Shown: positions 46,401 through 49,454, counted from the stretch's first letter. The stretch is DNA of 64,000 bases from Escherichia phage WPEC2 (PV691511.1), one strand, 5' to 3'. Notes: generated by a model not told the origin, from the sequence alone. Made by a program: numbers and translations.

Positions 46401-49400
46401 ATGGCAACATTCCCAACATATCCGGCAACGTCTCTTGAACAGGGCGTAGATCTGGTTATTTTCTCGTCTAACCAACTTCACGATGTTATTAATGGAAGTG
46501 CGACAGAAAGTATTGAAACAGAATCAGGGTTGATACCAACCCTTAGAAAAGCCCTTGTTGATAACTTCTTTTTTAAGAGTCCCTTGGATTGGGCGCAAGG
46601 CACTAATGAAACAGTTTTTAACCAACTTCGTTATTTTCAAAACGGAGTGTTGAGTGGTTATTACTATGCGCCTAATGCTACACTGGTAAACCCTATTCCT
46701 ATGCAAGGTACTCCAGTAGGAGATAACAACTGGGTATTGTGGGGACTGAAGACAGAACAATTGGCAACAGAAGTAACCCCTTGGGTATATTCTGGGGCAA
46801 CTGGTTATGAGACAGTAATTAGTCCTCCTTACATCTTTGATAGTGCTATTGTTACAATCAATGGTGTTATTCAGGTTTTGGGGGAAGCTTTCCGCATAGA
46901 AGATAGTAAAATAATCTTATCTGAACCTTTGGGGCATGATCCTGCAACAGGACTGCCAAACAAGCTTTTTGCTTATATTGGTAAAATTGTAGCTTCCGCA
47001 GATACAGATCCTAACCTAGAGAACCGTCTTGTTAGTTTAGAAACAAAAACTGAAAAACTGACAGAAAGCATGGATAAAGTTCCTCTGCAAACCATTGCTC
47101 GTAAATATGGTTTGTTAGATGATGAAGTAGCATATGCTACAGTGGGACAGTCTTTAACAGGGATTAAAGCCCTGTATGATCCGGTAGCACAATCTTCCTA
47201 CACATTACCTCCTAACATTACAGGGACGTTAACATCTTTGTCTGTTTCTGGAGTAATGACTTATTCTGGTGGTTCTGTAGATCTTTCTGCACTAGCTGTA
47301 GAACGTGGACAGTTTGTTCATTTGCCTACAAGCTTTGGTAATAACGTAACCTTGACAGCTAAAAACCAGACGATTGGACGTGGGGCTGGTCGGTATCGTT
47401 GGGCTGGAAGTTTACCAAAAAGCATTTTGGCTTCTGATACATTGGAGACAAGTGGAGGATTAGGTCCAAATGCATGGGTTCTGACCAATACAGAAGGTTT
47501 GTTAACACCTCGTGGTGGAACTTATAACGACTTGTTTGATGTGGTTTACCTGTCAGAGTTTGCTAACAACACAACAACATATACAACACCAGAAGCAGCA
47601 TTTCAAGCAGCTTTAACAGCAGCAAAAGCTTCCAAAAGCAAAATTCTTGATGCTTATGGTTGCGATATGACCTTTACCACTAGTTCATTTGATATCCAAG
47701 ATATTACTTTACGTGGTGGTGTATTCCGTGGTCAACGTGACTATCGTGTTCAAAACGCAACAGTAGAAGGCACAACTTTCCGTAACGCTCGCGTTATGTA
47801 TTGGGGCGGTGCTGTGCGAATGTTTGATTGTTTGTGGGACGGTGCTCCTCGCGCAGGGCAAGTTGGTAGCTTGGTATTCCAAGGCAACCCAATTACAGGT
47901 ACTTTTGAAATTGATAACTGTACTTTTAAAAATGGTTTGTATGGTATCCTTCAGCAAGGAACAGGTGAACCAGTAACGCGTGGTGTCTTCCGCAACCTAA
48001 CTTTCATGGATATGCAAGGGGATGCAATAGAACTGAACGTCATCAACAAACATTACGATGATGGTTGTGTGATTGAGAATATTTACCTGTCTAATATCGA
48101 TGGGACTAATGCTCCTATTCCTCTGTCCAACTGGGGTATCGGTATTGGTGTAGCGGGTAAAGGACCATATGGTTACGGAATTCCCGATGATCAATACTGT
48201 AAAAATATTACGATTCGTAACGTTTTTGCAAAACGTTGCCGTCAGATTGTTCACGTAGAAGTTGGTCGTAATATCTCTATCGAAAACATTCATGGCGATC
48301 CAGATCAAACTGTATCTGTTGGAACAGGTTTGGCAACTGGCGCAGTTGTAATGTACGGAAGTAAAGATTTTACAATTGATGGTGTTTACGGAGAGCCTAA
48401 AACAGACGGTAGCACACTCGCAAGTAATATCCGTATGATTTACTTAGAGTGGGGGACTAATCCAGTTCTAGATGAAGAGGGAAATCCTGTAGTTCCAGCA
48501 CAGGGTAGACCTTCAAACCCATGCTTTAACTATTCTGTTCGTAATATTCATACAAAAACAGGACGTGTCTTTGCAGGAGTTTCTGCTGGACCAGGTTATG
48601 AAAACAGAGTCAGCTTTGAAAATATTCGTTGTGCTGCATTGCAGTTATTCGGTGTAGCTTCTTGGCTTTCAATGTCTAACATCACCTGTAATATCTTTGA
48701 TTGTGTTGGTCAACCTGAATCTGGCCCAGGAACATTTTATGATGGATTCTTCCGTAGAGAAAAATCTGTTCTTGAAATGGTTAACGTAAACTGCTATCCA
48801 GATGGTAAGACGATGGTTACAGGTCGTCCACAATGGAGTCGTTGTCGTTACTCTGATATTCATCGTGTCAACTGTAATGTTGAAGCTAATATGTATACCA
48901 ATATCGCAGGTGGCATTGGAGCTATCGTAGGAACTACTGGTAAAGTTTATTACTTAGAGCCTAATCCTAGCCGAAACATTGATGGTATGCATTTCCCAAC
49001 AGGGAAGGAGTTCGACAAAGGGGATATGATAGTTAAGGCAGATAATACGTTCTTCCTTGTAACTACAAGTGGAGCGTATATTCCAGATATCCCAGCTTTT
49101 GGAATCCGTGCAACATCAGCGGGAGACACTTTCTTGACGCAGAACTTGACTCCTAACGGGACAGCAACAAATGCTTCTTGGTTGTATCATTACCCTCTAT
49201 CAGCAGGAACACGTATCCGTATTCCTGGCGCGGGTGTAGACGGGGCGGATTTGGACACAGTTATTACTCGTGCACCTTATCAAGATAATGATACATGGAC
49301 TAACCCAGTTAAAATAGACATTGCAGATCCAATCGTAACGCCTACAAGTGCTGGAGTTAGAATAAAAACTATACCTAATGATTCTAGTAATGTTTCTGTA

Positions 49401-49454
49401 GGTAATACTGCGGTTATTCGCCCAACACCAGTAGTAGATGTGTCAACAACCTAA
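46401..49454 (+). CDS. tailspike-like protein with probable right-handed beta-helix domain (candidate polysaccharide depolymerase)
   Basis: 1017 aa; repeated short beta-strand segments rich in N/G/I/V (NCTFKNGLYGIL..., ITIRNVFAKRCRQIVHVEVGRNISIENIHG) typical of pectate-lyase-fold spikes. Confidence 0.45.
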   Translation: MATFPTYPATSLEQGVDLVIFSSNQLHDVINGSATESIETESGLIPTLRKALVDNFFFKSPLDWAQGTNETVFNQLRYFQNGVLSGYYYAPNATLVNPIPMQGTPVGDNNWVLWGLKTEQLATEVTPWVYSGATGYETVISPPYIFDSAIVTINGVIQVLGEAFRIEDSKIILSEPLGHDPATGLPNKLFAYIGKIVASADTDPNLENRLVSLETKTEKLTESMDKVPLQTIARKYGLLDDEVAYATVGQSLTGIKALYDPVAQSSYTLPPNITGTLTSLSVSGVMTYSGGSVDLSALAVERGQFVHLPTSFGNNVTLTAKNQTIGRGAGRYRWAGSLPKSILASDTLETSGGLGPNAWVLTNTEGLLTPRGGTYNDLFDVVYLSEFANNTTTYTTPEAAFQAALTAAKASKSKILDAYGCDMTFTTSSFDIQDITLRGGVFRGQRDYRVQNATVEGTTFRNARVMYWGGAVRMFDCLWDGAPRAGQVGSLVFQGNPITGTFEIDNCTFKNGLYGILQQGTGEPVTRGVFRNLTFMDMQGDAIELNVINKHYDDGCVIENIYLSNIDGTNAPIPLSNWGIGIGVAGKGPYGYGIPDDQYCKNITIRNVFAKRCRQIVHVEVGRNISIENIHGDPDQTVSVGTGLATGAVVMYGSKDFTIDGVYGEPKTDGSTLASNIRMIYLEWGTNPVLDEEGNPVVPAQGRPSNPCFNYSVRNIHTKTGRVFAGVSAGPGYENRVSFENIRCAALQLFGVASWLSMSNITCNIFDCVGQPESGPGTFYDGFFRREKSVLEMVNVNCYPDGKTMVTGRPQWSRCRYSDIHRVNCNVEANMYTNIAGGIGAIVGTTGKVYYLEPNPSRNIDGMHFPTGKEFDKGDMIVKADNTFFLVTTSGAYIPDIPAFGIRATSAGDTFLTQNLTPNGTATNASWLYHYPLSAGTRIRIPGAGVDGADLDTVITRAPYQDNDTWTNPVKIDIADPIVTPTSAGVRIKTIPNDSSNVSVGNTAVIRPTPVVDVSTT

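Follow-up and report, generated by a model that had tools for sequence, protein, structure and literature searches.

A conserved tail-module gene of Escherichia phage WPEC2 encodes a putative colanic acid-degrading tailspike of the phi92 gp150 family

The gene at positions 46401-49454 of Escherichia phage WPEC2 (PV691511.1) very probably codes for a tailspike of the virion, presumably a trimer, by which colanic acid is bound and hydrolysed; we give this reading a probability of about 85%, and within it we infer the catalysis and the trimer. Colanic acid is an Rcs-induced exopolysaccharide, the M-antigen slime, common to E. coli and related enterobacteria. The window is the whole stretch of phage DNA that was analysed (64,000 nucleotides, one strand), and the gene belongs to the tail-fibre module; the phage is a phAPEC8-like myovirus (Phapecoctavirus). 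The original prediction had placed a candidate depolymerase tailspike here; the open reading frame has exactly the coordinates it gave, as a single frame of 1017 amino acids. By homology, fold and motifs the product belongs to the colanidase tailspike family (phi92 gp150 / NST1 CAE / PHROG 6117). This assignment is already known, as identical genes have been deposited under such names, so the observation is correct and ordinary. The gene and its signals are as follows.

46390-46394, + strand: ribosome-binding site AGGGG, 6 nt 5' of the ATG, read from the sequence
46401-49454, + strand: putative colanidase tailspike gene, ATG start, 1017 aa, single ORF
49461-49483, + strand: GC-rich, terminator-like hairpin within the 63-nt gap preceding the next fibre gene

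The AGGGG adjoins the stop codon (46395-46397) of the upstream gene. Similar hairpins are also found 3' of the next two fibre genes (51545-51564 and 54259-54280). A promoter and terminator scan gave counts not above those of shuffled sequence (11 hairpin sites, 10.0 expected by chance), and the three hairpins are notable for their placement alone, directly 3' of three large fibre genes.

We regard the frame as a genuine gene and not a chance ORF because its product matches PHROG 6117 (E 1e-282), because it occurs in 70 phage records at a coverage of at least 80%, and because its dN/dS against phAPEC8 is 0.014 (dS 0.40). Strong purifying selection acts on it: phAPEC8 gp088 has equal length and the same architecture, with 92% DNA identity, 98.9% protein identity and 11 amino acid substitutions. 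The DNA is 100% identical in Escherichia phages WPEC1, WPEC4 and WPEC6, where the copies are annotated “colanic acid degradation protein.” By sequence and gene position, the protein is a homologue of phi92 gp150 and of phAPEC8 gp088; the latter and other Phapecoctavirus “colanic acid-degrading proteins” (e.g., vB_AbaM_ABPW7 gp174) are its orthologues.

The protein has four parts: an anchor, a helical neck, a D1/D2 module, and a beta-helix with its C-terminal domain (aa ~372-1000). The corresponding DNA segments are listed here.

46401-47000, + strand: virion (baseplate) anchor, aa 1-200, from homology, AF2 and Foldseek
47001-47105, + strand: alpha-helical neck, aa 201-235, with two helices (206-224/225, 227-235) in each of the two AF2 models
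47106-47495, + strand: D1/D2 module of the CBA120 TSP / G7C gp63.1 type, aa 236-365, from Pfam and PDB matches
47514-48770, + strand: right-handed parallel beta-helix, putative catalytic domain, aa 372-790, from AF2, Foldseek and the family alignment
48771-49451, + strand: C-terminal domain(s), aa 791-1017, from alignments, with lower AF2 confidence

The AF2 run on the full-length protein used 17 sequences and left aa 1-210 at a pLDDT below 50, and aa 1-235 were remodelled with 58 homologues (mean pLDDT 78). In the anchor, a globular domain is accompanied by an N-terminal helix (aa 12-23) and by a small beta domain (aa ~120-195), the latter of the T7 gp17-N / tailspike-adaptor type. It is 75% identical to aa 1-212 of phi92 gp150, and its residues 11-127 match aa 14-132 of the PhiTE long tail fibre (E 3e-19). 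Foldseek matches of the remodelled anchor include the PhiTE baseplate chain 9cuy_h, the CBA120 TSP4 N-terminus and the T7 gp17 N-terminus. There is a weak likeness to gp10-like XD domains (Foldseek to the TSP4 N-terminus, E 0.004; phmmer to aa 18-71 of TSP2, E 0.07). The homologous part of the PhiTE long tail fibre has been modelled on the baseplate wedge and the sheath initiator (PMC11972413). Read from the genes alone, attachment to the virion would follow from the two homologies, to gp150 and to the PhiTE fibre N-terminus. Among relatives, this one anchor type is joined to many different C-terminal enzyme domains.

The neck is probably a trimeric coiled coil, as judged from the models. In the D1/D2 module that follows it, Tail_spike_N (PF18668) is found at aa 302-361 (E 2.4e-9; 37.6 bits, above the gathering threshold of 25), and PDB matches over aa 226-372 are to the N-termini of TSP1/3/4 and gp63.1 (4qnl, 5w6f, 6nw9, 4oj5, 5w6h, 9d84; E 1e-25 to 3e-30). 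The order of parts, from an anchor or branching domain through D1/D2 (Tail_spike_N) to an enzymatic beta-helix, is that of the branched systems of CBA120 TSP2/TSP4 and G7C gp63.1/gp66, and the N-terminal model weakly resembles TSP4; their beta-helices are not specifically related to the one here (13-16% identity in fold alignments). The module is missing from phi92 gp150, where the alignment has a gap. Compared with the 804 amino acids of gp150, the 1017-aa protein has an extra segment of ~165-230 amino acids (neck and D1/D2, roughly aa 205-430).

From the texture of the sequence, a spike with a right-handed beta-helix of the pectate-lyase fold had been proposed, with structure prediction and pectin-lyase-fold HMMs as checks. 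Structure prediction bears the proposal out. In the AF2 model, beta rungs are stacked over aa ~410-770; averaged by 10-residue block, pLDDT there is mostly 80-92, falling lower at aa 481-490, 571-580, 591-600 and 681-710. The best PDB match in Foldseek is 6e0v_A, the colanidase tailspike of phi92 (gp150), at E 1e-36 with a TM(target) of 0.66 and 643 aligned columns, followed by CBA120 TSP1-4, the Sf6, HK620 and Det7 tailspikes, and PL6 alginate lyases. The same entry, 6e0v, is found by phmmer over aa 425-1000 (E 2e-78). The HMM check failed in Pfam: for the 1017-aa protein, Beta_helix (PF13229) stays below threshold (E 0.14; 12.2 bits against a cut-off of 25.9), Pectate_lyase_3 (PF12708) has no match, and Tail_spike_N alone passes. 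By comparison of the predicted structure, the fold is a right-handed beta-helix despite the sub-threshold Pfam score. Beyond the helix, AF2 confidence in the full-length run is low at aa ~770-870. The C-terminal domain(s) are common to phi92 gp150, J8-65 gp40, Sortsne gp29 and PVP-SE1 gp49, with a conserved motif, IPGAG...DIADPI, at aa ~941-978.

In a six-sequence family alignment, whose members are 34-49% identical to the 1017-aa protein, the family-invariant motifs GDAIELN (aa 540-546) and NWGIGIGVAG (aa 577-586) are kept, as are all the invariant acidic residues: D541, E544, E559, E620, D656, D660 and D767. As a sign of catalysis, this sequence conservation is suggestive only. One may ask whether the protein is a fibre that has lost catalysis and whose beta-helix recognizes colanic acid or another glycan merely as a receptor. 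Judged from sequence, such a loss of activity is conceivable, the conserved acids being candidates for catalysis, and colanic acid is reported as a receptor for Pectobacterium phage POP72 (title of PMC6390001). Yet every acid that is invariant in the alignment has been kept together with both motifs, and a dN/dS of 0.014 along the entire helix speaks for an active protein under full constraint. We consider a binding-only fibre very unlikely, and a hydrolysing tailspike remains the preferred reading.

Which polysaccharide would it cut? The closest characterized relatives of the enzymatic part are the podovirus tailspikes J8-65 gp40 and the NST1 colanic acid hydrolase (CAE, HM214492). Identity to J8-65 gp40 is 48.5%, over 94% of aa 420-1017, and gp40 shares the invariant motifs; these podovirus proteins differ in having a podovirus-type N-terminal adaptor and no D1/D2 module. 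NST1 is linked here through the reported 87% identity between J8-65 gp40 and the NST1 enzyme (PMC4179555). On mucoid E. coli the halos of J8-65 expand (PMC4179555), and the NST1 enzyme hydrolyses purified colanic acid (PMC9143390). The second relative, phi92 gp150 (PDB 6E0V/6E0W), is the best fold match and is homologous in both beta-helix and C-terminal domain, although its enzymatic part is only 33% identical; for gp150, cleavage at the beta-1,4 Glc-Fuc bond has been reported (Xu et al. 2025, cited through PMC13450770). The third is the polysaccharide depolymerase gene of Klebsiella phage KPPK108.1 (~29% identity over the aligned 82% of the query). Reviews list the K108 capsule as the target of its product, Dep108.1, and a title cited there calls this capsule “similar to E. 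coli colanic acid” (Kasimova 2023; PMC11652154, PMC13385381). The three are thus reported to act on colanic acid or a colanic acid-like capsule, and the enzymatic part described here falls between them. This sequence and fold homology upholds the earlier proposal of a candidate depolymerase tailspike, with the activity itself predicted.

The host supplies a relative as well. WcaM, a beta-helix protein, is the product of the last gene of wca, the colanic acid cluster of E. coli itself. Residues 502-662 of the phage beta-helix are homologous to it (NCBIfam TIGR04004 / NF007517, E 1e-25), and the score of this partial match, to aa 502-662 only, is 88-90 bits against equivalog cut-offs of 795-808. 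WcaM does not have the phage anchor, the neck or the C-terminal domain. By these sequence scores, the 1017-aa protein has a homologous core with WcaM but is no WcaM itself. The homology explains why PHROG places family 6117 in its category “moron, auxiliary metabolic gene and host takeover” and why some GenBank records read “colanic acid biosynthesis protein,” labels that would make the product an auxiliary enzyme or a biosynthesis protein outside the virion. Against such a role, the gene sits within the baseplate and fibre module in the orientation of its neighbours, the N-terminus shares homology with that of a fibre resolved on the PhiTE baseplate, the middle module is a tailspike N-domain, and the PDB title of the phi92 homologue says tailspike. 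On location, anchor homology and tailspike modules we reject a biosynthesis or moron gene, which is hardly credible.

A spike with the same fold and place in the virion might still have another substrate, degrading or deacetylating another enterobacterial K or O antigen or exopolysaccharide. The characterized colanidases are only 33-48% identical, the family includes the KPPK108.1 depolymerase gene, whose reported capsule target is similar and not identical to colanic acid (as described in PMC11652154), and in relatives the same N-terminal anchor carries unrelated enzyme domains. In the literature, we found an enzyme assay for no Phapecoctavirus ortholog, and function is transferred across 33-48% identity. 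It may be noted that tailspike specificity can change in this range. Against another substrate, three characterized members at different distances, with the 1017-aa protein between them, all act on colanic acid or a like polymer, and the core is homologous to WcaM of the host colanic acid cluster. Moreover, the protein is 98.9% identical to its phAPEC8 counterpart at 92% DNA identity while the tips of neighbouring fibres swap, which fits a target that is invariant between hosts. In phages whose isolation hosts were many different E. coli strains, the C-terminal 598 amino acids show 88.5-99% conservation (98.7% for the ABPW7 allele), unlike serotype-specific spikes. The ABPW7 protein has been given the same assignment, with a link to 6E0V, by HHpred (PMC11126041), and a Phapecoctavirus with such a gene was put in a cocktail meant to cover a colanic acid-overproducing resistant mutant (PMC12753057). 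We consider another substrate unlikely. From sequence comparison, the putative substrate is most likely colanic acid, a more exact proposal than the original one, and not a strain-specific capsule. We also considered Dpo42 of vB_EcoM_ECOO78 as a relative and rejected it; the phage is an unrelated one of 41 kb, and its paper makes no link to the 1017-aa protein or to colanic acid degradation.

The spike had been predicted to stand alongside at least three other fibre genes, a coiled-coil fibre, a collagen-like fibre and an RCC1/LRR adhesin. All three are genuine, and two more candidates lie upstream that had been overlooked (37135-40011 and 40020-42083).

37135-40011, + strand: 958-aa tail protein, candidate receptor-binding protein (PHROG 2871; phi92 gp141 homologue, 83% identity)
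40020-42083, + strand: further receptor-binding candidate, 687 aa (phi92 gp142 homologue, 76% identity)
44465-45496, + strand: short tail fibre, 343 aa (PHROG 4465; 73% identity to phi92 gp147)
45512-46051, + strand: assembly chaperone of the short tail fibre (Pfam Caudo_TAP; PHROG 136)
46062-46397, + strand: small conserved 111-aa protein annotated “lipoprotein” (PHROG 15210; phi92 gp149 homologue)
49518-51542, + strand: collagen-like tail fibre, 674 aa (phi92 gp151 homologue, 60% identity)
51584-54256, + strand: 890-aa tail protein (Pfam RCC1-like repeats and Big_2; PHROG 11922)

The module is syntenic with phi92 gp141-gp152, and the spike gene has the same slot as gp150, after the short tail fibre, chaperone and “lipoprotein” genes and before the gp151-type fibre. 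A wedge protein is encoded at 42336-43823. The predicted coiled-coil fibre is a short tail fibre with its own chaperone. A Q/N/L-rich, coiled-coil-like stretch does occur in it (aa ~228-290); its N-terminus is the wedge attachment, with aa 4-71 matching the PhiTE short tail fibre 9cuy_c, and its variable tip (aa 275-343) has no alignment to phAPEC8. Its phi92 homologue gp147 has been identified as fibre III. The chaperone is 26% identical to its phAPEC8 counterpart and 46% identical to phi92 gp148, and the “lipoprotein” translation contains no cysteine. In the collagen-like fibre, Pfam finds both Tail_spike_N (PF18668, E 1e-19; aa 12-77, straight at the start) and Collagen repeats (E 1.5e-14), in line with the prediction, and aa 559-671 match the PhiTE long tail fibre C-terminus. 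For the proposed RCC1/LRR adhesin, the RCC1 part stands and the LRR part is at most tentative. Its RCC1-like beta-propeller (aa ~40-330) is followed by Ig-like Big_2 (aa ~410-585; 66% identical to phi92 gp152 over aa 411-584) and a variable C-terminal part (aa 585-890) with no phAPEC8 match; for LRR we find DUF285 below its cut-off (E 0.0055) and a weak match to the engineered protein OR464 (4psj). Upstream, the 687-aa protein combines Calx-beta, an N4 gp65 sheath N-domain and a TIM barrel (PF23845, E 9e-79; PF23844; PF03160) and matches N4 Gp64 (9lc0_M, E 7e-30), and is thus N4 gp64/gp65-like. The 958-aa protein, with no PDB or Pfam match, belongs to the fibre network. The phage has at least six fibre or spike candidates, and the expectation of several receptor-binding proteins and a multi-receptor host range agrees with the published multi-fibre “nanosized Swiss army knife” of this phage group, with its three co-expressed fibre sets (PMC8594841, PMC11984140). 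Between relatives, the short-fibre tip, the C-terminus of the 890-aa protein and the endosialidase slot are variable; among these candidates, the colanidase is the conserved, host-independent tool.

In the mechanism we propose, the N-terminal ~200 residues would plug the spike into the baseplate periphery, where rV5-like phages have the “long tail fibre,” and the helical neck and the CBA120 TSP-type D1/D2 module would hold the enzyme away from the baseplate. The groove of the beta-helix may bind the polysaccharide and cut it, presumably, as is reported for phi92 gp150, at the beta-1,4 Glc-Fuc bond. The particle could then tunnel through the slime layer, so that the other fibres and the short tail fibre would reach glycan and LPS-core receptors.

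It is tempting to go further and suppose that, beyond clearing capsule, the colanidase serves phAPEC8/phi92-type phages as their equivalent of a long tail fibre and as a branching hub, although we regard this as doubtful. The idea arises because aa 11-127 are homologous to the PhiTE long-tail-fibre segment on wedge 2A, because the domain at aa ~120-195 weakly resembles the docking domains of CBA120 TSP2/TSP4, and because the collagen-like fibre of the next gene has a bare Tail_spike_N at its start, like a “client” spike. If it were true, the binding and processive cutting of colanic acid would be linked mechanically to the triggering of the sheath, and the colanidase together with the collagen fibre would be fibre II (or the base of fibre I) in the phi92 cryo-EM. 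In PhiTE, the wedge-2A segment and the C-terminus of the sheath initiator bundle together as a helical “rip-cord.” For phi92, the low-resolution density of fibre II was not matched by AlphaFold3 models of gp150 (PMC13450770).

The practical gain is a confident and more specific annotation of 46401-49454, with current understanding unchanged. Colanidase enzymes serve to make colanic acid oligosaccharides (PMC9143390, PMC13450770). Overproduction of colanic acid is a general path to broad phage resistance in E. coli (PMC12753057), and phages with colanidase spikes are therefore useful in cocktails.

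Gene 46401-49454 (+) of the window encodes the homologue of phi92 gp150, the colanidase tailspike of phage phi92. The phage is a myovirus of the phAPEC8 type (genus Phapecoctavirus, subfamily Stephanstirmvirinae), and the module around the gene is syntenic with phi92 gp141-gp152.

Features of the fiber module (identities are to the phi92 counterparts)
37135-40011 (+): gp141 homologue, 958 aa, 83% identity
40020-42083 (+): gp142 homologue, 687 aa, 76% identity
42336-43823: gp145 (wedge) homologue, 495 aa, 80% identity
43826-44455: gp146 homologue, baseplate gene, 209 aa, 87% identity
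44465-45496 (+): gp147 homologue, 343 aa, 73% identity
45512-46051 (+): gp148 homologue, 179 aa, 46% identity
46062-46397 (+): gp149 homologue, 111 aa, 76% identity
6 nt upstream of the 46401 ATG (+): ribosome-binding site AGGGG, adjoining the stop codon of the preceding gene
46401-49454 (+): colanidase tailspike ORF, a single ATG-initiated frame of 1017 codons
49461-49483 (+): GC-rich hairpin within the 63-nt gap between the colanidase and the next gene
49518-51542 (+): gp151 homologue, 674 aa, 60% identity
51584-54256 (+): gp152 homologue, 890 aa, 66% identity over aa 411-584 only

Among phage records, those of Escherichia phages WPEC1, WPEC4, and WPEC6 carry the colanidase gene at 100% DNA identity, and phAPEC8 and roughly 60 relatives carry it at approximately 92%; the label there is either “colanic acid degradation protein” or “putative colanic acid-degrading protein.” Against phAPEC8, identity is 92.2% in DNA and 98.9% in protein (11 of 1017 residues differ), with dN 0.0056, dS 0.40, and dN/dS 0.014 (Nei-Gojobori). 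Because of this ratio and the match to PHROG 6117 (E 1e-282), the ORF is a genuine gene and not a chance frame.

The protein has four parts (aa 1-200, ~206-235, ~236-365, and ~372-1000), the last of which is the enzymatic part, with catalysis ascribed to it from sequence. The full-length AF2 model stacks beta-strands regularly over aa ~410-770; pLDDT averaged over 10-residue blocks is mostly 80-92 there and dips at aa 481-490, 571-580, 591-600, and 681-710. The best Foldseek match in the PDB is 6e0v_A ([quoted passage not shown]; E 1e-36, 643 columns, TM normalized to target 0.66), followed by the CBA120 TSP1-4, Sf6, HK620, and Det7 tailspikes, and further by Acinetobacter and Klebsiella capsule depolymerases and PL6 alginate lyases. 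Since we take all of these to be right-handed beta-helix proteins, the original prediction of a beta-helix spike is borne out by model and matches. The check suggested with that prediction, pectin-lyase-fold HMMs, fails in Pfam, where the Beta_helix (PF13229) score of 12 bits lies below the cut-off of 25.9.

What does the spike cut? We searched aa 420-1017 of the enzymatic part against phage records by tblastn. Among the Phapecoctavirus records listed, most are 98.5-99% identical, and two, phiWec190 and PsgM04F, are more divergent (88.5-89%). Outside these, identity is 48.5% to J8-65 gp40, 43% to Sortsne gp29, 36% to PVP-SE1 gp49, 33% to phi92 gp150, and approximately 29% (82% of the query aligned) to the gene for the polysaccharide depolymerase of Klebsiella phage KPPK108.1, an enzyme that reviews name Dep108.1 (PMC11652154). 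By sequence, the window colanidase thus falls within a bracket of three experimentally anchored groups. The J8-65 spike is reported to be 87% identical to the NST1 colanidase, and on mucoid E. coli phage J8-65 forms halos that expand (PMC4179555); the purified NST1 enzyme (HM214492) hydrolyses colanic acid (PMC9143390). For phi92 gp150, the reported reaction is hydrolysis of colanic acid at its beta-1,4 Glc-Fuc bond (Xu et al. 2025, as cited in PMC13450770). Dep108.1 is, according to reviews, a validated depolymerase of the K108 capsule (PMC11652154, PMC13385381), which the title of Kasimova et al. 2023, cited in both, calls “similar to E. coli colanic acid.” Across an alignment of six family sequences, the window colanidase keeps all invariant residues, including the motifs GDAIELN and NWGIGIGVAG and the acids D541, E544, E559, E620, D656, and D660.

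In addition, aa 502-662 (47904-48386, +) match NCBIfam WcaM (E 1e-25), scoring 90 bits where the equivalog cut-off is 808. WcaM, a beta-helix protein encoded by the last gene of the E. coli host's colanic acid cluster, shares its core with the colanidase, which suggests a common origin with the phage colanidases. The homology explains the “colanic acid biosynthesis protein” labels on some phage records and ties the beta-helix core to colanic acid. The extreme conservation of the spike across phages from many hosts fits this substrate, since colanic acid is common to E. coli strains (PMC9143390). For the ABPW7 allele (98.7% identical over the C-terminal 598 aa), a review drew the link to 6E0V by HHpred and named colanic acid as the likely primary receptor (PMC11126041). 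The depolymerase interpretation is therefore supported by homology to characterized colanidases, its substrate now specified as colanic acid; we infer hydrolysis and bond specificity for the window spike, whose Phapecoctavirus orthologues are known from sequence.

Colanidase genes 88.5-99% identical (protein, C-terminal 598 aa) also occur in MG065650.1, OP562383.1, and OR584014.1, Phapecoctavirus-type genomes labeled Campylobacter phage B15, Acinetobacter phage vB_AbaM_ABPW7, and Pseudomonas phage PsgM04F. In hosts of this kind, a spike for colanic acid would be unexpected, and the labels may reflect contamination or mis-assignment; the Acinetobacter host of ABPW7 has already been questioned (PMC11126041).

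The N-terminal 200 residues are 75% identical to the phi92 gp150 N-terminus (sequence P0011 in this comparison is 99.4% identical to gp150). In a large protein database, on contigs mostly of 140-155 kb, this type of N-terminus is joined to many different C-terminal enzyme domains, among them Pectate_lyase_3, Beta_helix, NosD, GDSL lipase, and Peptidase_S74, which argues that it behaves as a conserved adaptor. Residues 11-127 align with aa 14-132 of the PhiTE “putative tail fibre protein” (9cuy_g, E 3e-19), a long-tail-fiber segment modeled on the baseplate by cryo-EM (PMC11972413). An AF2 rerun on aa 1-235 with 58 homologues (mean pLDDT 78) gave a model that matches PhiTE baseplate chain 9cuy_h in Foldseek (E 1e-6) and, more weakly, the N-termini of CBA120 TSP4 and T7 gp17. 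Residues ~206-235 are helical in both models. Residues ~236-365, including Pfam Tail_spike_N (aa 302-361), match the D1/D2 modules of CBA120 TSP1/3/4, G7C gp63.1, and Shigella phage B2 Gp48 (E 1e-25 to 3e-30), a segment that phi92 gp150 and the podovirus colanidases lack. The C-terminus of 9cuy_g is shared with aa 559-671 of the collagen-like fiber, so that one PhiTE fiber corresponds to pieces of two adjacent window genes (the colanidase and 49518-51542).

The original prediction listed four receptor-binding proteins; we count at least six fiber or spike candidates, in line with the multi-fiber “nanosized Swiss army knife” published for rV5/phi92/phAPEC8-type phages (PMC8594841, PMC11984140). 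Absent from that list is the product of 40020-42083, with Calx-beta, N4 gp65 non-contractile-sheath N-domain, and TIM barrel in Pfam and matches to N4 Gp64 (9lc0_M, E 7e-30) and gp65. In the same phage group, recognition of ECA or NGR glycans has been tied to proteins of this type (PMC11984140), and the 687-aa protein is likely an ECA/NGR-glycan-binding fiber. Gene 44465-45496, described as a coiled-coil fiber, fairly so given a Q/N/L-rich coiled-coil-like stretch at aa ~228-290, is assigned as the short tail fiber: its N-terminus matches the PhiTE short tail fiber, and phi92 gp147 was identified as fiber III and described as similar to Mu and Milano fibers (PMC13450770). The product of 45512-46051 is its Caudo_TAP chaperone (Pfam). 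Pfam confirms the collagen-like fiber 49518-51542 (Tail_spike_N at aa 12-77 plus collagen repeats). Of the RCC1/LRR label on 51584-54256, the RCC1 half stands (RCC1-like repeats and Big_2 in Pfam) and the LRR half is unproven, its signals being a sub-threshold DUF285 hit and a weak match to 4psj, the engineered protein OR464.

The 111-aa product of 46062-46397 is labeled “lipoprotein” in WPEC1, phAPEC8 (100% identity), and phi92 (gp149, 76%). The label looks wrong because the translation contains no cysteine and hence no lipobox. Close to the N-terminus, aa ~14-25 form the one hydrophobic stretch, and a charged coiled-coil-like tail follows.

Several neighboring genes differ from phAPEC8. In the short tail fiber, aa 1-274 are conserved (94%) while the tip (aa 275-343) does not align; its chaperone is only 26% identical, and both are closer to phi92 gp147/gp148 (73% and 46%). 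Region 44465-46051 looks like a swapped cassette of receptor-binding tip and chaperone. Likewise, aa 1-584 of the 890-aa protein are 97% identical to phAPEC8 gp086, in which aa 585-890 (53336-54256, +) have no match at E<=1e-5; this segment, with weak LRR-like hints, is probably another exchangeable receptor-binding tip. The conserved colanidase protein contrasts with these swapped tips. After the gp142-type gene, phAPEC8 and phi92 carry a tailspike gene of approximately 2.76 kb (gp095, putative endo-N-acetylneuraminidase; gp143, endosialidase). No endosialidase-type gene lies at ~42076-42083 in the window, where the 687-aa and 86-aa genes overlap directly, and therefore the window phage lacks the K1/K92 capsule spike. 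Over 42336-51542, dS against phAPEC8 is uneven: 0.40 in the colanidase and 0.43 in the collagen fiber, with lower values in the wedge (0.22), 209-aa baseplate (0.09), and “lipoprotein” (0.12) genes. Such a pattern suggests mosaicism through recombination, in which the colanidase and collagen fiber genes carry the older alleles.

How might the spike act? Held at the baseplate periphery through aa 1-200, it would bind colanic acid chains with its beta-helix and cut them endolytically, and the particle would move through the slime layer; the N4-gp64-like fiber, the other fibers, and lastly the short tail fiber would then reach their receptors, reported for this phage group to be ECA/NGR and LPS outer-core glucose (PMC11984140). 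Since the anchor is homologous to the PhiTE long-tail-fiber N-terminus, one could hypothesize that spike movement may feed into sheath triggering, and that the spike may be the unassigned fiber II, or the base of fiber I, of the fiber sets seen on phi92 virions by cryo-EM. In the phi92 study, AlphaFold3 models of gp150 were a poor fit to the low-resolution density (PMC13450770). The feature itself is already known, as identical sequences are deposited with a colanic acid annotation, a homologue has a solved structure, and the relationship to that structure has been published. What the analysis adds is a cleaner annotation, a domain map, and a pointer to the probable site of the spike on the baseplate.
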